Positions 5,521 to 49,890 of a stretch of DNA of 64,000 bases are shown piece by piece. The notes below the pieces were generated by a model. The model was not told the origin of the DNA. It made no database searches and saw only the letters and a list, made by a program, of their open reading frames with translations. Source of the stretch: Octopus vulgaris. Taxonomy: Eukaryota. Numbering within the stretch: the stretch's first letter is position 1; each line of letters starts with the position of its first letter. The stretch covers positions 2,976,001-3,040,000 of the forward strand of contig OX597837.1 of assembly GCA_951406725.2 (NCBI GenBank), in the 5' to 3' direction. A program made the position numbers and the translations under genes.

Positions 5521-5880
5521 CCGTTACGTTGTGAGTTCAAATTCCGCCGAGGTCGACTTTGCCTTTCATCCTTTCGGGGTCGATAAATTAAGTACCAGCT
5601 ACGCACTGGGGTCAATGTACTCGACTTAATACCTATGTCTGTCCTTGTTTGTCCCCTCTATGTTTAGCCCCTTGTGGGTAATAAAGAAATAGGTATTTCG
5701 TCTGCCGTTACGTTGTGAATTCAAATTCCGCCGAGGTCGACTTTGCCTTTCATCCTTTAGGGATCGATAAATTAAGTACCAGTTACGCACTGGGGTCGAT
5801 GTAATCAACTTAATACCTATGTCTGTCCTTGTTTCTCCCCTCTATGTTTAGCCCCTTGTGGGTAATAAAGAAATAGGTAT
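5521..5880 (+). mobile_element. SINE family B (tRNA head plus Meta-domain-like centre), head-to-tail dimer of the 3' ~184-nt unit
   Basis: Two direct copies of 'gttcaaattccgccgaggtcgactttgcctttcatcctt...aaagaaata' joined at gaaata|ggtatttc. Confidence 0.85.
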
Positions 5881-6040: not shown

Positions 6041-6353
6041 TAAAGTTTGTTTATAGTGGTTGTATACTGTCAACTCAACGTGACAGTCCCGTAAGGGAAT
6101 CACACCACCGCCATTTAGCCCTAGGAAACATCGACGTTTCCTGTCGGCTTTGACACATTTTCTGTGTCCTTATATTTGCAAATGTGTCAAAGCCGACAGG
6201 AAACGTCGATGTTTCCTAGGGCTAAATGGCGGTGGTGTGATTCCCTTACGGGACTGTCACGTTGAGTTGACAGTATACAACCACTATATCGCTCCACCAC
6301 CGCTCATGTCTCTCTGAGACACTTAGAAATTCAATATTTCTAAAGTTTGTTTA
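6041..6353 (+). mobile_element. Fold-back insertion: perfect 109-bp inverted repeat plus 52-bp tail, 13-bp TSD; probable Penelope-like element terminus
   Basis: Arms 6052-6160 and 6180-6288 are exact reverse complements. taaagtttgttta is duplicated at 6041-6053 and 6341-6353. Confidence 0.8.
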
Positions 6354-10784: not shown

Positions 10785-12233
10785 TCACTCTTCGGTATGA
10801 ATAGCTACATGTCGAGTTAAGTGACCTTTATGAGAGAAAGATTTTCCACAGACATCACAATGGTACGGTTTCTCACCTGTATGAATACGTTTATGTATAG
10901 TTAGGTTGTTTCTTACAGAAAATGATTTACCACAGATATCACAGTGATATGGTTTCTCACCCGTATGAATACGTTTGTGAGTAGCTAAACTGCTACTTCC
11001 AGAGAATGATTTACCACAAATATCACAGCGATGTGGTCTTGCTCCACTATGAACACTTCTGTGTCTTGTTAATTCGCTATTTTGAGAGAACGATATATCA
11101 CACACAGCACAGTGATATGGTTTCTCTCCCGAATGAATCCGCTTGTGAATAGTTAAGGTATTTCCATCGGAGAATGATTTACCACAGACGTCACAGCGAT
11201 ATGGCTTTTCACCTGTATGAATACGTTTGTGTCTAGTCAAAACACCATTTAGAGAGAATGATTTACCGCAGATATCACAGTGATATGGTTTCTCCCCAGT
11301 ATGAACGCTTTTGTGTCGAGTTAAGTCGCAAGTTCCAGAGAATGACTTACCACAAATATCACAGTGATATGGTTTCACACCTGTATGAAGACTCCTATGT
11401 CTGGTTAATTCACGATTTAAAGAAAATGATAACCCACAGGTATCACAATTAAATGGTTTCTCACCTGTATGAATGCGTTTGTGGTAAGTTAAGTCACTAC
11501 TTGTAGAGAATGATTTATCACAGGTATCACAGTGATATGGCTTTCCACCTGTATGAATATATTTGTGTCTCGTTAAGGTATTGCCATGAGAAAATGATTT
11601 ACCACAGACATCACAACGATATGGTTTCTCACCTGTATGAATACGTTTGTGTTTAGATAAGTCACTACTTGCTGAGAATAAATTACCACAGATGTCACAA
11701 TGATAAGGTTTCTCACCTGTATGTACACGTTTGTGGTTAGTTAAATAACTACATACAGAGAAGGATTTACCACAAATATCACAGGGAAATGGTTTCTCAC
11801 CTGTATGAATGTGTTTGTGTTTAGTCAAGGTACTTCCATGTGAAAATGATTTACTACAGATATCACAATGATATGGTTTCTCTCCTGAGTGGACATGTGT
11901 GTGGCGAATTAAGTGGCCTCTTTGAGAAAAAGATTTACCACAGACATCGCAGTGATATGGCTTCTCCCCTGTATGAGTACGTTTGTGTATAGTTAAGGTA
12001 TTTCCTCTAGAGAAAGATTCACCACAGATATCACACTGATATGGTTTCTCTCCTGTATGAATGTGTTTATGAGTAGTTAAGTTACCAAGTGCAGAGAATG
12101 ATTTCTCACAGATATCACAGCGATATGGTTTTTCTCCTGTATGTGTATATTTGTGTATGATAAGGTTTCCCTTTTCGGAGAATGACTTTTTACAGATATC
12201 ACAATGGTATGATTTCCCTATCTCTTTTGGCAT
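10785..12233 (-). CDS. Tandem C2H2 zinc-finger protein (ZNF-2), 17 fingers
   Basis: Open ORF; first ATG at 12233 ([11 protein letters not shown]...), whereas the ORF-track start at 12272 is GTG. Predicted acceptor (ctttcatttcag) at 12639 and donor (cag|gtaaaa) at 15577. Confidence 0.93.
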
Positions 12234-12699
12234 GTCTTTAGGAAAAACAAAAAAAAGTTTGTCACAGAACACCTTATGTAAAATTGTTCCCTCATCAAAA
12301 CATATTTTTCTTGTTTCCTCTTCTATATATTCCCATAGTGATGGAAGTTGTTCTACTGATATATTTCCATTGATACATATATATATATATGATGGTTGTA
12401 AACACCTTTACAAAATTATCCAAGATTAATCAGTTTTACAAAATCGTCATCTACATATTCCGGAAGAAAAAAGTTTTTGTTAATCTCAGTTTGGAAGAAA
12501 TATTTTCTCTAATTCACCACAGATTAATAAAATCTGGGTTATATCTGTTCTGTGTAACATCTTTTAGTCTTTAGCAGATGATAAACATTGGTGAAGCATC
12601 TGATGCGAAAGAATTTTATGCAAGTGTCATTTGATAGGCTGAAATGAAAGAGAAACGGAATAAGATAAGGAGGATACTTAAAGAGGAATATATTTCTTT

Positions 12700-20551: not shown

Positions 20552-21170
20552 TTACTGCTTTTTATGAATACGTAAGTGTCTAATTAAGTGACCATCTTGA
20601 GAAAACGATTTACCACAGGTATCACAATGGTATGGCCGCTCACCTGTATGGGTGCGTTTATGGTTATTTAAATGGTCATTTCTAGAGAATAATTTCCCAC
20701 AGGTAACACAGCAATATGGCTTTTCTCCTGTATGAATACGTTTGTGTTTAGCTAAATGAACATTTTGAGAGAAAGATTTACCACAGGTAACACACTGATA
20801 TGGTTTCTCACCTGTGTGAGTGCGTTTGTGACGAATTAAATGGCAATCAAGATTAAAACATTTACCACAGACATCACAACTAAATGGCCTCTCTTCTGTA
20901 TGAATAAGTTTGTGGGTGATTAAATTACTTTTGGAGAATGATTTACCACAAATATCACAACGATATGGTCTGTCACCTGTATGAGTACGTTTGTGTTTAA
21001 TTACAGCACTGCTTCGAGAGAATGTCTTGCCACAGATGTCACAATAGAATGGCATCTCTCCTGTTTGAATACGTTTAGGAGTAGTTAAAGGATTAGGCAA
21101 TAAAAATGATTCTCCACAGACTTCACACTTGTATGGCCTCTGTCTTGTATGACTGTGTTTATGAATAATC
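20552..21170 (-). pseudogene. N-terminally truncated C2H2 zinc-finger gene (ZNF-3), 6 fingers plus 1 degenerate; possibly a pseudogene
   Basis: Fingers are colinear with ZNF-5 (both end HKKQ*). The leader and ancestral ATG are absent and an in-frame stop lies at ~21173. The ORF-track start is TTG; the first ATG is at ~21054. Confidence 0.7.
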
Positions 21171-22765
21171 TCTTATATAAAATCCGTTCTGTCTGTCTGT
21201 GTGTGTGTGTCTTCTAGGATCTCGGGCATCCTCCATCCGATTGATGTATCCGAGATACAGACGTATTTTATGCCAATGTCACCGTATATTCTGAAATAAG
21301 ACAGGAATACAAAGATATAGTTAAAAAAATCTGAAGTTCAGTCATGAATATTTTACTAAGTTCCTATATACATGCTTTCCGTACGTATACGGAAAGCGTG
21401 TATATAAAATTATAGAATTATTTTGTTTGTTAATTGTTTAAATTATTTTCCATTGCTTTCGTTTTTTTTTTTACACGCGTAACAATTAAATTAATTTAAC
21501 AATTAAGAAAAAAAAATTAGGGTTAGGGTTAGGTTGAGGGTTAGTGACAGGATGTTGTCTCAGTTTTAGATGCAGCAAATGATTTTAGCTCAAAAGAGAG
21601 CATAGGATTGGTTAAAATTCAAAAATTAAACTACGTTAAACAAACAAATTACAATTTTCTCAAGAAAGTCAAGAGAAAAAAATGTTTTATTTTGACACTA
21701 CCAATATACGAAGTTTTAAAGTGTTTAGTTAACTAGAATTTGTCTGCCGTTCAAAAGGAAAAGATCCCTTTATAATATTAGTTATTAAATATTAATGTTT
21801 GTTTTTTATAAAATGGGGTATATTTGATTTGCATTAAATTATTATTTACGATTATAATCACAAGTAACACTCAAATTCTTTTCACTTCAATGTTTTTTTT
21901 TTCTGTATTTAATTTCGTTTTGCACATTTTCGTCAATTCGCTACGATCTCTTTAAAGTAAGCAAAATCAAAAAAATTTAGATGGGATGGGTTTAAAATTT
22001 CTGGTTAATGTTTACATCTTGACCCGGAAATGAAAATAAAAAAAACCAAAAAAAAAAACCACTGGAATGGGTGTAAAACAATGTCTAGGAAACGAATATG
22101 AAAAACAAACAAAATGCGCTCAAAGCAACTTCGGAAAATTCACAAAATCCGAGTTTCCCTCTCATAATTTTTAGCAAAAATGGGGGTTTCTTTCAATGAA
22201 ATTTTATATAAATATCTTTCAAAAGGCATACATTGTGACTATAAAGTAATTTGTGGGGAAAATCTTGAAGTGGGGAGAGGACTTTGGGAAAATTCCCAAG
22301 ATCCGAATTTCTATCCACTTTCAATAATTTTTTATGTTTTGGCTTCAATTTTATTTCATTTTCAATTATTTTTACGCTTTTTTAACCCTTCATCGTTAAT
22401 CTCGTTCACTTCTTTTTTTAGCATATTTGTAATCACCGACATCTAAATCCGAAAATTTTTTTTTTCAAAAAAATGCATTTTTCAATAACTGTATTACCCC
22501 CGAAAAATAATTCGAAAAAAAAAAGTTAAAATTTAAAAGTTTGGGGTTAACAATTTTGAAAACATGGTTTTTGGCAGATTCAGAATCTCCGTCATCGAAA
22601 CATAGGAATCCTCTGAAAAAATTTCAAAAAAAAAGAAAGAAAAAAAGGGTCGATTTTTTCGTGCCGGTATACTTGTAAACATTAACCAAAAGTCCTCTCC
22701 CAAACCCGATGATTCCACCCCACCCCACGTTTTCCGGGTACAAAAGTAATTAAAACAAAGTAAAT

Positions 22766-24112: not shown

Positions 24113-24321
24113 AATAAACGGAAATGGGTGGAAGTGCTTATGCTTCACTCCAGAAATATATACCTAAAAATCAAAGATCGCACACAAGGCGAATCTAAAA
24201 CTATGGGCGCCCACTAATAATTTTAGCGAAAATAACAGCTTCAAAATTTAGCACAGGGCCAGCAGTTTTTTTAGGGGAGACGACAAGTCGATTACATCGA
24301 CTGTAGTGATTCACTGGGTGC

Positions 24322-24786
24322 AGCTACGTTCTGAGTTCAAATTCCGCCGAGTTCGACTTTGCCTTTCATCCTTTCGGGGTCGATTAAATAAGTACCAGTT
24401 ACCCACTGGAGTCCATATAATCGACTTCACCCGTTTGCCTGTCCTTGTTTGTCCTCTCTGTGTTTAGCCCCTTATGGGTAGTAAAGAAATAGGTATTTAT
24501 TTCAGACTCCGAAAGGATGAAAAGCGAAGTCGACTTCAGTGGTATTACAACTGTGAGCTTAAAGAGAACAAATACCTATTTCTTTACTACCCACAAGGGG
24601 CTAAACACAGAGAGGATAAACAAGGACAGACAAACGGATTAAGCCGATTATATTGACCTCAGTGTGTAACTGGTACTTATTTAATCGACCCCGAAAGGAT
24701 GAAAGGCAAAGTCGACCTCGGCGGAATTTGAACTCAGAACGTAGCGGCAGACGAAATACGGCTAACGATTCTACCAGCTCGCCGCC
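24322..24786. mobile_element. Two SINE B copies, tail to tail
   Basis: + copy 24322-24497 and - copy 24571-24786. Confidence 0.8.
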
Positions 24787-26215: not shown

Positions 26216-26746
26216 TATTATCTTACTTGTAAATAAGTGAAGATTGGCAACATAAATGCATCCAGCCATAATAAATCTGCCTTATTGAATTCTATTTGAC
26301 CCATGCATGCATGGAAAATTGTATATCAAAACAATGATGATAGTAATGAAGATTTGTGCATATTTTGTCTTTGTCTAATGTTAAGTCTTACACTGTCATA
26401 TTTTCTTGCTTTACAGTTGTGTTACTTGGACATTCTAATGTAACCTGTAGTAGAAGACTATCATTTCTATGAGAACATCTGCTGCCAGTTATTTATGAAC
26501 TCTCTATATTCTCTAGCCTACATAACATCCATTGACATTTATTAATCTAAATATAAAAGTCTTTTTGTTTACATCAGTGTGAGAAGATTCAACTAGTCTC
26601 TGTGGTAAGTAGAAAATATATCTACATTACATATTTCCTGCACAGCTAAGCAAAGGCTTAAGATATTGAAGGCAAGGAACTGAACCACAGCTGAGTATAT
26701 ACACACAAACATTTCTCTGCTTTTAAGAATTTCATCAACACTTAAT

Positions 26747-27559
26747 ATGGAGGGTGTCGATCCCTTGAACACTTCAAATATAACTGTTTTTGCCCGTAAA
26801 GATACAGCTTCGCAAACGTGCAGTGATGAGGAAAGCTTGTGTGATGAAATGTTTACTACTAAACGAATATCGTTACACAGGAACACGTGCAAATATCGTT
26901 GTGGGATCTGTAGGAAAATATTCTCCTCAAAACAAGAAGTCTTTGCACACAGAAAAATACACAATAAGGAAAGATCTTGCTACTGTGAGATATGTGGAAA
27001 ATCTTTTGGGAATAGATCGGATCTTGTTATCCACAAAAATAGTCACAATGAAGAGAAACCCTTCCACTGTGGAATTTGCGGGAAAGCTTTTTTCTCTAAC
27101 AGTAAATTAACACGACATAAAATAGTTCACAGCGGAGAAAAACCGTTCCATTGTCAAATCTGCGGAAAATCTTTCACGCAAAATTCAAATCTTATTATTC
27201 ATAAACGAATACACACGGGGGAAAATCCATTTCACTGTGAAACATGTGGAAAGGCTTTCATTAACAATTCAAGCCTTACGATCCATGTTCGTAGCCACAC
27301 GGGAGAGAAACCATATTACTGTGAAACATGTGGTAAATCCTTCGTGGATAACAGCAATTTGACAAGACACAAACGAATCCATACTGGGGAAAAGTTTTTC
27401 CACTGTCAAACGTGCGGAAAATCTTTCATTGAAAACTCTAAGCTTACGATCCACATACGCAGCCACACTAAAGAAAAACCGTATCAGTGTGAAATCTGTG
27501 GAAGATCATTCTCTGTTAACTCCAGTCTTGTTGTCCACAAACGGGTTCACACCGGATAA
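26747..27559 (+). CDS. C2H2 zinc-finger protein (ZNF-4), 270 aa, 8 fingers
   Basis: ATG-initiated ORF with 8 CxxC..H..H units. Candidate acceptor ttgctttacag at 26416. Helix residues (NSxL-rich) and leader differ from the other five genes. Confidence 0.9.
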   Translation: MEGVDPLNTSNITVFARKDTASQTCSDEESLCDEMFTTKRISLHRNTCKYRCGICRKIFSSKQEVFAHRKIHNKERSCYCEICGKSFGNRSDLVIHKNSHNEEKPFHCGICGKAFFSNSKLTRHKIVHSGEKPFHCQICGKSFTQNSNLIIHKRIHTGENPFHCETCGKAFINNSSLTIHVRSHTGEKPYYCETCGKSFVDNSNLTRHKRIHTGEKFFHCQTCGKSFIENSKLTIHIRSHTKEKPYQCEICGRSFSVNSSLVVHKRVHTG

Positions 27560-30049: not shown

Positions 30050-30346
30050 AATCTATTCACTCAATAATAAATCTCTGAACGAGATGTAAACAGTAACTGC
30101 ACGACAATGTAAGGTATACTAGCCATCTCAATATGGCTAACCACTAAGGGTGGGTGTTACTGTAGCTTTTAGCCCCAGGAGATCATCGTCTCCAGCTGAC
30201 TTTAGGCACACTTTCTAAGGGCACAGAAAGTGTGCCTAAAGTCAGCTGGAGACGATGATCTCCTGGGGCTAAAAGCTACAGTAACACCCACCCTTAGTGG
30301 TTAGCCATATTGAGATGGCTAGTATACCTTACATAATCTATTCACT
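30050..30346 (-). mobile_element. Fold-back insertion: perfect 110-bp inverted repeat plus 45-bp tail, 12-bp TSD
   Basis: Arms 30107-30216 and 30225-30334; aatctattcact duplicated at 30050-30061 and 30335-30346. Confidence 0.8.
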
Positions 30347-34708: not shown

Positions 34709-35704
34709 TTATATATATATATATGTATGCACACACGTTATAGAACATTGCTGTTCTATAAAGAATTATGCCATTACATCTGGTCAACGATACAACTGGT
34801 TAGTCTAATATATTGTCAGTAAGGGAGCGAATCATAGCCCTCTGTTTTGGCAAGTAGTCCATTGTTTCTGGGTCATTACCCTTCATCGGTACTGGACACC
34901 TGCCTACTACAGAGATATAAGTAGTAGCAATACTAGACGGTAATGTGGGTTTTTTTTTGCCACTATAACATGGCTGTTCTGTAAAGAACTATGTTACTAC
35001 ATTTTAACCCAGGAAAATACAAAAACACCCTACAGTTTGCGCTTGTCAATACTTTAGAAAGTAAATTGAAACGGCATTCTTTCGATATAGCTCGACATGG
35101 TCGAGACATTTCACTTCGGGTATTTGTGTGGGTTGTGGAGTATAGAAATAACGAAATTATGCCAGCAATGTCTGAATTTAAAATTGGATTAAAAAAGCCT
35201 TGCATATTTGTTCTTACCTGTTTCAGGTGTGTATGTAAAATCCGCAAATTTCCAAGCAGAAAGCAGAATCGAACTTTCATTTGCTTCCACGGAAATACCC
35301 GAACTGAAGTGTTTTGATTTTGTCGAGTTATATCGAAAGAATGCCATCGGGCATTCCTTTGATATAGCTTATACAAAGTGGAAGAAGGGTCACTACAAAA
35401 GGTTAATACACACCCTACAGTTCAGTTAAAAGTTAATTTTATATCTAGTTTTTTAGTGTAGAAGTATAGTAAAATATTCATTGCTGAATTTCAGCATTTT
35501 CAACTACATTTTTTATTGTTTTATTTCAAAATATGAGATGACATTGGCATAAAATACTTTTGTCTGTATTTCAGATATTTCATCATCATTGCTTGTTAAA
35601 CAGGACCAATGTAAACTTGGAGAAATTCACCTATTAGCTAGCAACATCATTAGGTATTGACAAAAATCACAGTCTGTTGAAGTATAAAAAAACCGATAAA
35701 CATT

Positions 35705-36006
35705 GCCTTTTTCAAGCCTAGCCAGGCTCATGGGCCCAGTTTCCTGGTTTCTGTGGCGTGTGTGTTCCCCCCAGCTGGACAGGATGCCAGTCCATTGCAA
35801 CGTTACTCAAGAAACAGGAAGAGAGAGTGAGAGAAAGTTGTGGCAAATGAGTACAAAGGGGTCGCCACTACATCCTGCCGGAGCCTCATGGAGCTTTTAG
35901 GTGTTTTCACTCAATAAACACACACAACGCCTGGTCTGGGAATCGAAACTGCAATCCTCCGACTGCAAGTCTGCTGCCTTATCCACTGGGCCATTGCGCT
36001 TCCACT
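35705..36006 (-). mobile_element. SINE family D in the 5' UTR part of the ZNF-5 exon
   Basis: tRNA-like head at 35930-36006; absent from the paralogous ZNF-6 leader. Confidence 0.75.
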
Positions 36007-36097
36007 GTTGATGTATAGGAGAATATATATTTGTAGAAATAAAATATCTAAAGGAAAAGGAGAAAAGGCATCTGTATATATTGGTGAGCATAGAAAT

Positions 36098-36778
36098 ATG
36101 GAAAACAAGCTGAATTATAAAACACAAAGTAAAAAGATTGATTTTTCTGAAACAGCTCACTTAAGAAGTCACAAACATACTCAAACAAGTGAAAAATCGT
36201 ACTGTGATATCTGTGGGAAATTATTCACTCGAAAGAATATTGCAGTTCATAAACGCAGCCACACGGGAGAAAAACCATATCGGTGTGATATCTGTGGTAA
36301 GACATTCTCTCAAAGTTGCGCTGTAATTAAACACAAACGTACTCATACAGGTGACAAACCATATCGTTGTGAGATCTGTGGTAAATCATTCTCTGAGAGT
36401 CATAATTTAAGTAGACACAGGCGTATTCATACAGGAGAGAAGCCGTTTTGCTGTCAAATTTGTGGTACATCTTTTACGCTAAATCATCATTTGACTCGTC
36501 ACAAACACACTCACACAGGAGGTAAGCCATATCAGTGTGTTACCTGTGGTAAATCTTTCTCTCAAAATGTTCATTTAACTAAACACAAACGTATCCATAC
36601 AGGTGAAAAGCCATATTGCTGTGTTACTTGTGGTAAATCATTCTCTCGAAATGATCTCTTAACAAATCATATACGCACTCATACAGGTGAGAAGCCATAC
36701 AATTGCGACATCTGTGGCAAATCATTTTCTGAAAATGGTCCCTTAATTAAACATTCGCGTATTCATAAAAAGCAATAA
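36098..36778 (+). CDS. C2H2 zinc-finger protein (ZNF-5), 7 fingers
   Basis: Open ORF. ATG 36098 (MENKLNYK) matches the ZNF-6 start; an upstream in-frame ATG lies at 36011. Acceptor tatttcag at 35574. Confidence 0.9.
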   Translation: MENKLNYKTQSKKIDFSETAHLRSHKHTQTSEKSYCDICGKLFTRKNIAVHKRSHTGEKPYRCDICGKTFSQSCAVIKHKRTHTGDKPYRCEICGKSFSESHNLSRHRRIHTGEKPFCCQICGTSFTLNHHLTRHKHTHTGGKPYQCVTCGKSFSQNVHLTKHKRIHTGEKPYCCVTCGKSFSRNDLLTNHIRTHTGEKPYNCDICGKSFSENGPLIKHSRIHKKQ

Positions 36779-38625
36779 CTATTTCACTCAAAACTCATTT
36801 TATATCTATTTCAATAAATATAAAATAATTTATATAATAATAATAATGAAATTATTGTATACAGTGCTCAGGTGCACCACAACTTGTCAGACAGTGCGTA
36901 TAAAGCATATGCAGTAATGTACAAACGCCTGGAAAGCGGATAATGTATGAGTCAGATACATGCTTGTGTGTGTATGGAGGGGAGAAAATCAGGTGTAGTG
37001 TTGGCGAATCTCAGAAAGCATGGAAGTTTTTATGTCAATAATATATTTTTTCACACACGAAAGGAGAGATAATAGTGTATGATAATAGAATCCCCACACA
37101 GCATTTTCTCTAACCAAATGTACAAGTAAAACATACATTTGGCTTATTGCAGCTGGATTTATTCTGCACATCACATGACTGCTTTTAACCAATCAATAAT
37201 CAGCTACTTTCACTTGTTCTATTTGGGGAACGAAGATTTCCTTTGGTGTTTTCCTAGATTAAAAATAGAAACAAATATTTTCTCATAACTTTTTTATTTT
37301 TCCATCTGACTCTATGTCACTAATCATGAGACACTCTCATAACCATCCTGTATACTCTTACTCTTTACTTGTTTCAGTCATTTGACTGCAGCCATGCTGG
37401 AGCACTGCTTTTAGTCAAGCAACTCGACCCCGGGACTTATTCTCTGTAAGCCCAGTACTTATTCTATTGGTCTCTTTTGCCAAACCGCTAAGTGACGGGG
37501 ACGGAAACATACCAGCATCGGTTGTCAAGCAATGCTAGGGGGACAAAGACAGACACACAAACATAAACACGCACATACATATATACGACAGGCTTCTTTC
37601 AGTTTCCATCTACCAAATCCACTCACAAGGCATTGGTCAGCCCGAGGCTATAGCAGAAGACACTTGCCCAAGATGCCATGCAGTGGGTCTGAACCCGGAA
37701 CCATATGGTTGGTAAGCAAGCTACTTACCACACAGCCACTCCTGCACCTGTATGTTTGTTAATTAAAATTATTTTCCTTTCTGGGTAGGTTGACCGAGAG
37801 CTACCCTTGCTCAGCCTTGATCATTTACCTGCATCTCTGTGTAGGTCTGTCTTTTATCTTACTTATTTCAGTCATTTGACTGTGGCCATGCTGGGGTTTT
37901 AATTGAATGAATTGACCCCAAGATTTTTTTTTTAAACCTGGTACTTATTCTATCAGTCTCTTTCTGCTGAACTGCTAGTTTATAGAGACGTAAACACACC
38001 AAGTAGGTTGCCAAGTGGTGGTGGTGGTGGACAAACACAGACATAAACACACACATACACAACAGGATTTCAGTCTTCATCTACCAAATCCACTCACAAG
38101 TCTTTTGTTGGCCTGAAGCTATCAAGTGGGACTGAACACAGAACCATGTAATTGGAAAGCAAGCTTCTCATTACACAGCTGTACCTGTACCTAGGCAAAT
38201 TTTTTTTTTTTGTAGAAGACTGACAGTTGCTTCTACAAAACGTTTGATGTCAAATAAGTTACCAAATAAGAACCAATGACACCAAAACAGAACTACCAAA
38301 AGAAAACATCTGTATATTGTGGTGAATGCAGAAGAATTATGGAGAATGAATTATGTGCAAACAAGCTTGAATGTAAAACAGAATCTAAAAGGATCGATTT
38401 TGCTAATGATTTAATAAATGAAGAAATGGATAACACCAGCAGACTCTTCCTTTATTTTCCATATATCCACCCTCTTCTTCTTCGTTGGATGCTGTGCTTT
38501 TCTTTGTTCTTTCTTTCTTTTCTCTGACATGCTCTGCCTTCTTTTAAAACATATAATTTTTGTTTATTTCATGAGTTTGATTTGTATGGATTGGTTTTTC
38601 TTTGGGAAAATTGGTTTCTAATATT

Positions 38626-39020
38626 TAGGAGTGGCTGTGTGGTAAGTAGCTTGTTTACCAGCCACATGGTTCCGGGTTCAGTCTCACTGCGTGGCACCTT
38701 GGGCAAGTGTCTTCTACTATAGCCTCAGGCCGACCAAAGCCTTGTGAGTGGATTTGGTAGACAGAAACTGAAAGAAGCCTGTTGTATATATGTATATATA
38801 TATATGCGTGTGTGTGTTTGTGTGAGTGTATTTGTCCCCCTAGCATTGCTTGACAACCGATGCTGGTGTGTTTATGTCCCTGTTACTTAGCGGTTCGGCA
38901 ACAGAGACCGATAGAATAAGTACTGGGCTTACAAAAGAATAAGTCCCGGGGTCGAGTTGCTCGATTAAAGGCGGTGCTCCAGCATGGCTGCAGTCAAATG
39001 ACTGAAACAAGTAAAAGAGA
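38626..39020 (+). mobile_element. SINE family A
   Basis: Match to 2557-2953; absent from the paralogous site near 18835. An opposite-strand copy lies at 37357-37750. Confidence 0.85.
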
Positions 39021-42982: not shown

Positions 42983-43300
42983 ACTTGACTTGACTTGAGA
43001 CAGCATTCACCCGGGGTGGGTTGAGCTGGCTTCATTCATCCTCAATGCTGCATCTCTCACAAACGCTGACCAGGCCTGGTGATTTGAGGCTAACGACCGC
43101 GTGATCTCCAACAACTCCTTATTCCAGCAGCGAATGCCGTAGATATGGGGGCCTAGGTTGGGTTCCAGATCAGCCTTGACTGTCATCAGCCAGGTTTTCC
43201 ATTGTACACCACATCGCTTTCGCCAACCCTGAAGGGGAGCTGGGGCAATTGCTTCGTAGATGAATTCTCCTGGTTGACGACAGAGGGCAAATATTCCTCA
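42983..43300 (-). mobile_element. 5'-truncated RTE LINE in the ZNF-6 5' UTR
   Basis: GWRKRCGVQWKTWLMTVKADLEP...; (CAAGT)n tail; 11-bp TSD tgtatattttg; empty site in ZNF-5 near 36075. Confidence 0.82.
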
Positions 43301-43325
43301 TGTATATTTTGGTGAGCATAGAAAT

Positions 43326-44342
43326 ATGGAAAACAAGCTGAATTATAAAACAAAACGTAAAAAGACTGATTTTTCTGAAACGGCTCATATAAGTAGACAT
43401 AAATATACTCAAACAGGTTATCATTCATACGACGACGTCTCTGGTAAATTATTCCCTCAAAAGATTATGGCAGATCGAAAATGCAGTTATATAAAAAAGA
43501 AGCCATACCAATGTAATATCTGTGGTAAGGCGTTCTCTGAACGTAGTGACGTATGTAAACACAAACGTACTCATACAGGTGAGAAACCACATCGCTGTGA
43601 TGTCTGTGGTAAGTCATTCTCTGAAAGTGGTAATTTAAGTAGACACAAACGCATTCATACAGGTGAGAAGCCATATCGCTGTGATGTTTGTGGTACCTCT
43701 TTTACTTTAAATGGTCATTTAACTCGTCACAAACTCACTCACACAGGTGAGAAACCATATCGGTGTGATACCTGTGGTGAATCTTTCTCTCGAAGTGTTC
43801 ATTTAACTAAACACGAACGTATTCATACAGGTGAAAAGCCATATTGCTGTATTACCTGTGGTAAATCATTCTCTCGGAATGAATACTTAATTAAGCATAA
43901 ACGCACTCATACAGGTGAGAAGCCATACCATTGTGATACCTGTGGTAAGTCATATTCTGATCACAGTTCCTTAATTACTCACTCACGTATACATACAGGT
44001 GTGAAACCATTTCGCTGTGATGTCTGTGGGAAATCTTTTGCTCTAAATAATTACTTAACTAATCATAAACGTACTCATACGGGAGAGAAGCCATACAATT
44101 GTGACATCTGTGGTAAATCATTTTCTCAGAGAAGTTCCTTAAATAACCATTTGAATATTCATGCAAGAGGGAAACCATTCTGCTGTGATGTCTGCGGAAA
44201 ATCTTTTACTTTAAATAGTTATTTAACCAGTCATAAACGCATACATTCAGAAGAGAAGCGATATAGTTGTGATTTGTGTAGTAAATCATTTTCTCAAAAC
44301 AGTACCTTATTTAACCACTTACGTATTCATGCAAAGAAGTAA
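43326..44342 (+). CDS. C2H2 zinc-finger protein (ZNF-6), 338 aa, 10 fingers plus 1 degenerate
   Basis: ATG-initiated ORF with TGEKP linkers; candidate acceptors at 42740 and 42785. Confidence 0.93.
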
Positions 44343-46050: not shown

Positions 46051-47559
46051 CTATAGAGACATGTCTCTCAACTTATCAGGAGATACAGCAACTGTTAATC
46101 TTTTGCCAATGTGTATAAATTTTATATTGATTATATATTATATTAATTATAATATATATTTTATATTAATTAGCTGTAGCAAACAGCTAATTAAACTACA
46201 ACAACTGGTAGATTACTAATTACAGTACAACACCTGTATTACTAATGACTCTTCGATAAAAAGTATAATTCAACTGATTGACTCATTCTAATTGGTTAAC
46301 CCCTTGACGCTGGTATTACCCCAAGCATGCGAGACACTACTCCGGTTTTTTTTCATCCAATGAGGCCACACAAACAGACAAGTGCCAACGAGCTCATGTC
46401 TATTTACGTTCACCGTTACAATAACATAGTGTCGTGCATTTATGTCTACCGGTTTACGAAAACGAAGTATGTGAAGTTATTTATCATATTTATGATATGC
46501 ACGAGTTATTCTGCTCAAGTTCAAAAAATAGCTTGCGTGTGGTACAACTCAAAGCACGGTATTATGCATTGAAAGTATCCGCATGTCACTGTTCTACTGC
46601 TAGTCTCATGACTTGAACGTAACCTAAAATAGCTAAGATAATGCACGGGACGGCGAGCGCCGCACCTCAAGAGATAAAGTACACGATAGCGAACGTAAAC
46701 ATACGTCAGCCGCTAAAAAACGCTACAGTTGAACTTACGAGATGTCTAGCTGTTTTTTTTCTAGGGACGAAAATGGCCGCATAGAGGTTTCCCTCGTAAA
46801 ACCTCAAGCAGAATATTCGCAGGAAGTCTTTTATGCTGGTGTGTTTGTTTTTGTTATTTTGAGCTGTGAACTGAGAGGGGATGTCTGGATTTTTCTTTCT
46901 GTGTAAATAATAAAAAAAAAATTTGATAATTCTAGTTAAACGAGTTGAAAGAATTATCAATGAGAAGCAATTCCTTCTTTATGATTGAAGAGTTATCTCC
47001 CATAGACTTGAGGTGAAGTATGCATTGGCGATAACTAACCCCCATCCGTTGGCAGGAGCTATTTAAAAATATGGGAAGCGCTGTCTTCGCAGGTTTGCCC
47101 CCTTGGTAATTTTGGTAAGGGCTTTGTCGTGCTTTCGCTTGTACCTATTTTTTCTTAGTGCCTTTGGACATTAGTCAAATTGTGGAAGGGCGGCGAGCTG
47201 GCAGAATCGTTAGCACACCGGGCGAAATACTTAGCGGTATTTCATCTGCCGGTACGTTCTGAGTTCAAATTCCGCCGAGGTCGACTTTGTCTTTCATCCT
47301 TTCGGGGTCGATTAAATGAGTACCAGTTACGCACTGGGGTCGAGAGGACAAACAAGGGCAGACAAACGGATTAAGTCGATTATATCGACCCCAGTGATTA
47401 ACTGGTACTTATTTAATCGACCCCAAAAGGATAAAAGGCAAAGTCGACCTCGGCGGAATTTGAACTCAGAACGTAACGGCAGACGAAATACCACTATGCA
47501 TTTTGCCCGGCGTGCTAACGAATCTGCCAGGCTGTATGTGTGTGTGGCTATCATACTTC

Positions 47560-49890
47560 GTTTCGCAAGTGTTAAGGCCACTCATTGAGATGTCTCCTGG
47601 TGTTTGTGAAAGCACAGAGGACCTTTTCAACAGGGTTAATGAATGTAACCGCTCCTACAACCTGACAGATTGTATAGTAGGCAGTATGGATGTGGTATCA
47701 CTCTACCCATCTATCGACATTGACTTTGCTGTAGAAAGATGTGTGGAAATTATCTCCGAGAACGAGTTATTCTTCTGTGAGGTGAACACATTGGAACTGG
47801 GCCTCCCCCTGAAGCTCGTTTACGATAGAGAATACTTGGCTCACCACGACCTAAGTAGATTCTGTCCCACTAGGTAGACAAATGCGGTAGACAAATCGCA
47901 ATCACATCAACAGCTAGGAAAACCACCGCACATGCAGTGGGTGCAAGTTTAAAGATCACCCTACAGAACCATATAGTTAAATTCAACGAGAAGCTTTATA
48001 TACAAGTTCAGGGGATAGCCATCTGTGTCAGTGTGGCTGGGGACGTAGCTGGCCTATTCATGGTCTGATGGGCTAGAAAACTGAAATAAGCTCTTGAGGA
48101 GCACTCAGTAGTAATCAGAATGTATGGGAGATATGTGGATGACATCAACATCATGTTCAAGACACCATCGAACAATCAGACTGAAGAGAACGAGAGTTCA
48201 TGATGGAAAGCATTCAGGGTATAGCTAATTCCGTACACCAAAGCATCAGGGTAACTATAGATTACCCAACAAGGCACTCAAACAAGAGACTCCCAGTCCT
48301 TGACACAGAGCTTTGGCTAGAAACCGTTTACAAGGCGAGCTGGCAGAAACATTAGCACACCGGACGAAATGCTTAGCGGTATTAAGTCTGCCGTTACGTT
48401 CTGAGTTCAAATTCCGCTGAGGTCGACTTTGCCTTTCATCCTTTCGGGGTCGATTAAATAAGTACCAGTTACACACTGGAGTCGATGTAATCGACTTAAT
48501 TCGTTTGTCTGTCCTTTTTTGTCCCCTCTGTGTTTAGCCCCTTGTGGGCAATAAAGAAATAAGAAACCGTTAACAACAAAGTTCAAATTCTCCACTTACA
48601 CTGTATGAAACCCATGTCCTTGAAGTATGTAGTCCGTAAGAGTTCGGCTCTATCACATAATGTGAAAATTAACATATTAATAGCTGACTTAGAATAATGA
48701 AAAACATATTACCCTCTGTGCAAACCCTGGAAGAACCAGAAACACACACAAGACCTCATGCATCACATGCAATTTTCGGGAACGTAACGGCAGACGAAAT
48801 ACCTATTTCGTTACTACCCACAAGGGGCTAAACACAGAAAGGACAGACAAAGGGATTAAATCGATTACATCGACCCCAGTGCGACCCCGAAAGGATGAAA
48901 GGCAAAGTCGACCTCGGCGGAATTTGAACTCAGAATATAACGGCAGTCGAAAGATAGGATTCGAGTGTACAGTGGGGCTAGCAAGAAATTTGAAGAGATT
49001 GTGAATAAGGATGCCGATGGAACACAACCTAGTTACCGTAATAAGCAGTAGAATAGAATAGAAAGAATTTATGATAAAGGGAACAAAAAGAACACATGGT
49101 ACAATGCCGACAAGTTCCAAGGGATAATGTTTGTAGAAGCCACACCACACGGGGAACTAACCTGCAGATTTAGAAAAATCCTGAAGGATACAAAGTTGAA
49201 CATAAAAGTCATAGAAAAATTAGGGCGACCCATCAGGTCAGTAATATGCAAAACAAACCCCTTCAGAAAGACCACGTGTGTAGAGGAGAACTGTGTAGTG
49301 TGCAGGGGATAAACACAGAGAGGACAAACAAGGACAGACAAACGGATTAAGTCGATTATATCGACCCCAGTGCGTAACTGGTACTTATTTAATCGACCCC
49401 GAAAGGATGAAAGGCAAATTCCGCCGAGGTCGACTTTGCCTTTCATCCTTTCGGGGTCGATTAAATAAGTACCAGTTACGCACTGGGGTCGATATGATCG
49501 ACTTAATCCGTTTGTCTGTCCTTGTTTGTCCTCTCTGTGTTTAGCCCCATTGTGGGTAGTTAAGAAATAGATATAGTTCTGGTGTCAACTGCAAAACCAG
49601 AAACGTAGTTTATCGAATAAAATGCTTGGATGGTGATTGTGAAAACCAGAAGTCTGCATACATAGGTGAAACGGCGAGAAGTTTCGCCGAACGTATAAAT
49701 GGACATTGGCGGGAATTCAGGAATCAAAACAAGCCTCGATACTCTACTAGCATGCCAAAGAACAACATGGTGTTGTGTTGAACCGGATTAGCATAGAAAT
49801 GTTGTCTAGATATCCGGACGACACATCGCTACGACAGGTACGAGAGTCAGTCTCCATAAATGAAGCACGACCAGTTTTGAATAGTAAATA
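47560..49890 (+). mobile_element. Decayed Penelope-like element (RT, Cys-rich linker, GIY-YIG endonuclease; Neptune-like), interrupted by SINE B copies
   Basis: GSMDVVSLYPSI, LYIQVQGIAI, YGRYVDDI, C..C..C linker, NVVYRIKC...AYIGETARSFAERI; multiple stops and frameshifts. Confidence 0.85.

Follow-up and report, generated by a model that had tools for sequence, protein, structure and literature searches.

Fold-back insertions in Octopus vulgaris are truncated non-LTR retrozymes with a covarying 3' RNA fold, a likely binding and start site for a Penelope-like reverse transcriptase

Two fold-back elements in a 64,000-nucleotide stretch of the Octopus vulgaris genome (contig OX597837.1, positions 2,976,001 to 3,040,000; hereafter the window) are 5'-truncated, head-to-head insertions with 12- to 13-bp target duplications. 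Both belong to non-LTR retrozymes, which occur here as abundant tandem families with a unit of approximately 353 nt and a hammerhead. The seven-stem RNA fold shared by these truncated retrozyme insertions (P1 to P7) is likely where a borrowed Penelope-like reverse transcriptase (RT)/endonuclease binds and starts cDNA at two internal points. The core stems are real, but they form the 3' part of a longer unit; the initial annotation saw only this 3' half because 5' truncation had removed the hammerhead from both window copies.

Copy A lies between 13-bp target-site duplications with identical letters (6041 to 6053 and 6341 to 6353, plus strand) and consists of two arms that overlap by 3 nt (6180 to 6182) and share 109 nt with 0 mismatches. 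The short inverted arm (6054 to 6182, minus strand; covariance model [CM] match, 73.9 bits) spans the base of the hammerhead rod, P1, P2/P3, the 5' strand of P4, P5, and P6, and stops at a position designated end 1. The tail-bearing arm (6180 to 6340, plus strand; 99.6 bits) runs from the P1 loop to a second position, end 2, and contains, all on the plus strand, P2 (6191 to 6194 with 6220 to 6223), P3 (6198 to 6204 with 6211 to 6217), P4 (6229 to 6237 with 6295 to 6303), P5 (6242 to 6245 with 6250 to 6253), P6 (6254 to 6259 with 6268 to 6273), and P7 (6307 to 6312 with 6316 to 6321). P4 closes a junction (6229 to 6303, plus strand) that holds P5, P6, and a 21-nt single strand, and end 1, at approximately 6288, falls within that single strand. 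The tail between end 1 and end 2 (6289 to 6340, plus strand), made up of the 3' strand of P4, the P7 hairpin, and an AT-rich run, is found in one arm only. Copy B has 12-bp target-site duplications (30050 to 30061 and 30335 to 30346, plus strand, identical letters), a tail-bearing arm from the P1 loop to end 2 (30062 to 30216, minus strand; 152.7 bits), and a short inverted arm from the whole of P1 to end 1 (30216 to 30334, plus strand; 109.8 bits), with 110 nt shared between the arms at 0 mismatches. Its stems follow the same order as those of copy A (30071 to 30210, minus strand).

P2 to P7 were found in both copies where the initial annotation had placed them. P1 is whole solely in the short inverted arms (6152 to 6168 in A, 30220 to 30236 in B), and both tail-bearing arms start in its loop. 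Copy A starts at 6054 and not, as proposed, at 6161. Within each copy (6054 to 6340 and 30062 to 30334), variants that depart from the family majority are common to both arms, which implies that one template served for both or that the arms were later homogenized. The window also contains a cluster of six C2H2 zinc-finger frames (244 to 1851, 10785 to 12407, 20552 to 21172, 26684 to 27559, 35918 to 36778, and 43278 to 44342) and another abundant SINE-like repeat of approximately 185 nt, in inverted and tandem arrangement (24319 to 24749, 5521 to 5880, 37549 to 38821, and 47342 to 48528).

Fetched copies of types A and B run upstream into a 353- to 354-nt tandem unit, and across lineages the tandem periods are 353 to 362 nt and the monomers 352 to 370 nt. 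Each unit carries a single type I hammerhead with a palindromic stem III; it caps a long rod and precedes P1 by approximately 57 nt, and it is these full monomers with a type I hammerhead that identify the family as non-LTR retrozymes. The motif used for identification is one that we take to represent the hammerhead core; stems I to III are present in every lineage, and several cores deviate from the motif, with U or C substitutions at positions 3, 4, and 8 and a mismatched closing pair in stem II. The unit is too short for an RT, and copies that continue past end 2 enter the next monomer, leaving the family with no RT of its own and no LTR layout. Rfam 15 gave no match in the window at the gathering score, and a search at E values of up to 5 in eight loci with whole monomers returned microsatellite-driven matches and weak ones, with nothing relevant. 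The hammerhead of these monomers also goes undetected by Rfam models.

This organization agrees with the definition of non-LTR retrozymes in PMC7229834 and bioRxiv 10.64898/2026.07.22.740005 as short noncoding tandem units of 150 to 450 bp with one type I hammerhead. The metazoan retrozymes in these two texts likewise have such a unit (350 to 390 bp in mussel) and long target duplications, and a Penelope-like element (PLE) is proposed there as the mobilizer; the duplications in the window, at 13 and 12 bp, are longer than 4 bp. Expression, cleavage, and circles have been demonstrated for these metazoan retrozymes, whereas the octopus family is described here from its genomic copies. The main texts present single-sequence energy folds and call the sequences species specific, whereas the octopus family yields a covariation-based consensus and mapped ends; no covariation-based consensus, mapped insertion ends, or cephalopod was found in those main texts. 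A covariation-based structure for the initiation region of a retrozyme or PLE was not found in the literature, where the supplements of four key papers may hold related folds. The term "undescribed" in the initial annotation thus fits the consensus fold, of which no description was found, and does not fit the element, which belongs to a known class with a Penelope-like footprint.

At least 12 lineages (A, B, C, D, E1, E2, F1, F2, G, H1, H2, and I), approximately 45 to 80% identical, are present in the 2.8-Gb host genome, lineage and copy counts being lower bounds. A first look gave 3032 candidates for A and 2701 for B, which are not copy numbers, and 40 of each were scored; in a full-length alignment, A and B have 178 of 341 letters in common. 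Clustering of 86 near-full monomers produced 12 clusters and, with four C clusters merged, nine lineages that are 43 to 79% identical. Lineage C was reached from a decayed third copy in the window (34826 to 35054, minus strand; nhmmer E value, 2e-4; CM, 40.2 bits, E value, 2e-7), in which the 3' domain (34897 to 35054) is followed by a deletion and a degenerate hammerhead at approximately 34857 to 34889. Lineage D came from a chance neighbor, E1, E2, F1, F2, G, H1, and H2 from pattern searches for other stem III palindromes, and lineage I, 46 to 50% identical to the others, from the covariance model in a locus fetched for another reason. A further lineage outside the 12 lies at L396 (335 to 605, minus strand) and is 80% identical to E1. 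Lineage D is also present in contigs from three sequencing runs guessed to be RNA and from one other, the read type itself being a guess. A metagenome scan returned 45 pattern matches (best CM E value, 0.24) and no family member.

Stem III loop palindromes differ among sister lineages (ATAT, ACGT, CATG, CCGG, TGCA, TATA, CTAG, and TCGA; compared in loci L002, L171, L094, L156, L050, L195, L079, L271, and L356), that of lineage I being 2 letters long. In searches for predicted palindromes, 73 of 77 matches were palindromic, with only 6 of the 36 allowed words being palindromes, and backward-pattern controls gave 0 matches. Stem III words in lineage D (n = 34) included CTAG 19 times, CTGG 11 times, and CCGG once, a wobble path linking two palindromes. 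Under the hammerhead position numbering that we assume, U3 and A8 replace the usual C3-G8 in lineages D and I and in a 781-codon PLE of the same genome (L079, L356, and L395), which may be a compensatory change and hints weakly at kinship among the three. Other hammerhead-like motifs, with no relation to the retrozyme family, occur at L025:872 (plus), L050:2429 (minus), and L017:744 (plus). The type I/minimal hammerheads of PLEs described in PMC4209133 share with those of octopus a short stem III, a palindromic loop, and predicted action as dimers; the octopus hammerheads differ in that stem II is short, stem I forms a very long rod, and eight palindromes coexist among sister lineages of one genome.

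Stem pairing was preserved beyond chance, as the initial annotation had proposed, in alignments larger than the original pair of copies. In a MAFFT alignment of 25 copies, which was not fitted to structure, 84.5% of 1,019 cells paired, compared with 77.5% for shuffled controls (0 of 500 reached the observed value) and 35 to 45% for slid partners, and double changes occurred at 21 of 41 pairs; further pair types were no higher than in shuffles (484 of 500). A model-fitted alignment of 150 matches, which leans toward the structure, gave 83.5% pairing and double changes at 33 of 41 pairs. In a tree-aware test of nine lineages, using per-lineage majority pairs and a null in which sites evolve independently along the tree, 259 of 261 core cells were canonical (null, 223.8 ± 6.4; maximum, 242 in 5,000 runs), with 13 extra Watson-Crick types against 2.8 expected. 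The 30 core pairs (P1 to P4, P6, and P7) were picked after the per-lineage majority pairs had been viewed; left out were P5, pairs at helix ends, and the P2/P3 cells of lineage D, which are in a shifted register. Lineages found after the model was fixed provide a cleaner test: H1 kept 30 of 30 core pairs, H2 29 of 30, and I 29 of 30 (88 of 90 in all), in model-fitted alignments resting on 4, 3, and 30 copies, respectively. In lineage I, three pairs that never vary in the remaining eleven lineages have changed on both sides. Pairing persists in 22 of the 25 cells that depart from A as well as from B. At least two Watson-Crick types occur at 15 of the 30 core pairs. These values come with the caveat that all 12 lineages are from one genome and that much of the P4/P6 covariation lies on one long branch (A/G).

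Several details of the original description changed with the wider sampling. The P2 strand agtc of copy B is present and proved private to that copy, the family having agcc. P5 exists in both window copies, but D and G lack it, and its register is displaced in A, C, and E2. P7 is kept in lineages but is almost invariant, uses another register in A, and barely covaries, with no double change at the lineage level. The gtatac motif at the base of P6 is kept in A, G, and B-like lineages and not outside them, and of the ttgag reported for the P6 loop, the loop keeps TT alone plus, mostly, an A. G-U outnumbers A-C by 9 to 2 in core cells, which points to the hammerhead-sense strand; folding energy alone does not favor that strand, whose z score is equaled or surpassed by that of the antisense in 4 of 9 lineages. 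Against shuffles, the window stretches folded with z scores of −3.04 (A) and −0.58 (B, lacking half of P1 and no more stable than its shuffles), and whole family copies folded unaided into P1 to P7 with z scores of −6.0 (A) and −1.95 (B). An alternative pairing from RNAalifold, between the 3' strand of P3/P2 and the P7 loop, was set aside for its lack of double changes.

Genomic copies end at their 3' side in two places in all lineages examined, a survey in which end 2 was inflated by the queries. When 60 loci were picked by hammerhead pattern alone, 27 ended at end 1, 16 at end 2, and 6 elsewhere, while 3 ran on (reference copies), 5 were not alignable, and 3 were duplicates; the two fixed ends account for 43 of 52 hammerhead-selected copies. 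Measured from the predicted cut, end 1 lies at +167 to +179, in the unpaired stretch that separates P6 from the 3' strand of P4, and end 2 at +208 to +236, 10 to 27 nt past P7; the tail is 45 to 59 nt long. Of 30 B copies selected by the tail only, 20 lie next to an inverted arm, which in 16 of these 20 stops at end 1; 8 of the 30 carry unique target duplications of 11 to 16 bp, the others being ambiguous in (TA)n or absent. Flanks are mostly AT rich or (TA)n, as judged by inspection. Since end 1 lies inside P4, the template must extend past the start, which implies internal initiation; this location, together with a fold that is kept while the letters near the ends change, makes the fold a likely positioning signal.

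The 5' ends of the same 30 B copies are widely spread and cluster only loosely at the bases of helices, and 8 of the 30 copies read across the hammerhead cut site; no 5' end fell at the predicted cut, the nearest being at +10. The initial annotation had offered a new ribozyme as an alternative, and a second self-cleaving activity in P1 to P7 could draw on the conserved unpaired letters in the P2/P3 internal loop and the P6 loop, on the lack of an Rfam match, on the start of both tail-bearing window arms within the P1 loop, and on the 9 of 30 5' ends that fall at +48 to +63. Those ends, however, are spread over 15 nt rather than sharing a single cut-like site, and another 9 of the 30 lie at +121 to +146, by other helix bases, a pattern that RT stops would give; each monomer already has one hammerhead, and no pseudoknot was seen. 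A second ribozyme is therefore very improbable, and the competing proposal, a structured RT-recognition or priming domain at the 3' end of a retroelement, gains support from covariation in 12 lineages and the two fixed copy ends.

The fold could instead be conserved chiefly because it serves the RNA circle itself, by making it compact and nuclease resistant, by avoiding double-stranded-RNA sensors, or by binding host proteins, with the starts set only by single-stranded, AT-rich stretches that the fold exposes. Consistent with such a role, structure extends over the entire monomer, with a hairpin and the long rod lying far from the copy ends, metazoan retrozyme RNAs are described as highly self-paired circles (PMC7229834), and both ends lie in single-stranded A/U-rich stretches. 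General stability would need no constant helix order and spacing over approximately 50% divergence, however, and the ends hold their place relative to P6, P4, and P7 while the local letters differ in A, B, D, F, and I, which makes this explanation unlikely compared with a signal for RT binding and initiation.

By analogy, the two-end pattern matches the two internal RT starts of the anole (Anolis) element PAc, a PLE of the Poseidon type, whose protein in vitro cleaves AT-rich DNA on both strands, extends them, and initiates reverse transcription at two internal positions flanking a tail, with the hammerhead upstream of the starts and its cleavage not required for insertion (PMC11167929). As given in the main text of that report, PAc is autonomous and starts inside its open reading frame (ORF), its tail is 30 to 40 nt compared with 45 to 59 nt in octopus, and its first start lies in an AC-rich stem loop, whereas the octopus retrozymes have no ORF and their end 1 lies in a single strand of a three-helix junction. 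Insertions of endonuclease-bearing PLEs (PMC8557442) also show 5' truncation, partial tandems, an inverted 5'-truncated copy, a tail at one end, and a (TA)n preference; their tail, again 30 to 40 nt, is shorter than that of octopus retrozymes, and the octopus copies have no attached RT or GIY-YIG frame.

A pathway consistent with these features would begin with transcription of tandem copies, which may self-cleave as dimers via the palindromic stem III and then circularize. On an uncut multimer or a circle, the P4/P6/P7 region would serve as docking site for a PLE protein, which would nick both strands of AT-rich DNA approximately 12 nt apart. One cDNA would be primed at end 2 and a cDNA on the opposite strand at end 1; both would stop early, often at a helix base, and a 5'-to-5' junction at a few letters common to both would create a fold-back with a tail on one arm only. 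A more ambitious version, which is conceivable but doubtful, holds that the P4 junction and P7 suffice as a signal, flexible in sequence, for loading a Penelope RT dimer and placing both starts on circular RNA, so that a dozen lineages could ride a PLE without shared sequence, with the eight hammerhead palindromes serving as private keys by which each lineage cleaves only with itself.

Candidate partners were sought among the PLEs of the genome, from a small sample of thousands of candidates. The fold was absent, by CM search, from terminal repeats in 83 PLE endonuclease loci (30 GIY-YIG, 29 of another PLE fragment, and 24 Neptune), from those of 4 long Neptune-type loci with a 1,312-codon PLE, and, with filters off, from those of 3 loci of the 781-codon PLE; none of the sampled PLE loci had an RT plus GIY-YIG frame adjoining the fold on the same strand. 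Retrozyme copies beside PLEs in L002, L079, L291, and L396 proved to be separate insertions rather than terminal repeats, and same-strand retrozyme pairs 1.4 to 3.6 kb apart were local duplications. The autonomous 781-codon PLE also leaves a two-end footprint, with ends approximately 39 nt apart, in (TA)n (L393 to L400); a resemblance of its tail hairpin to P7 was not borne out by folding (z score, −0.27). A further coding-like stretch precedes the frame of this second young family. The 1,312-codon PLE, presumably of the Neptune clade by its motifs, is very young and abundant, with an intact frame at L122 (1510 to 5448) and an endonuclease that is 100% identical in at least 70 places.

Because Xenopus retrozymes derive from PLE terminal repeats, according to bioRxiv 10.64898/2026.07.22.740005, the octopus repeats might be orphan terminal repeats of an unsampled autonomous PLE family from which the fold was inherited, and the PLE sample would leave room for one, comprising the best 150 of thousands of candidates scored, with 30 fetched per search. 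Copies past end 2 nevertheless enter the next monomer and not a reading frame, and partial dimers and trimers are common, so such an origin is very unlikely.

Penelope-like RTs are the closest kin of telomerase RT, and the fold bears on how these enzymes recognize a template and on how animal retrozyme RNA returns to DNA. With two mapped candidate starts and compensatory variants already present in nature, the 160-nt domain is a ready substrate for the existing in vitro PLE assay. With a borrowed Penelope-like protein as the likely user of the fold, mobilization of retrozymes by PLEs is supported from the anatomy of the insertions, beyond mere co-occurrence.
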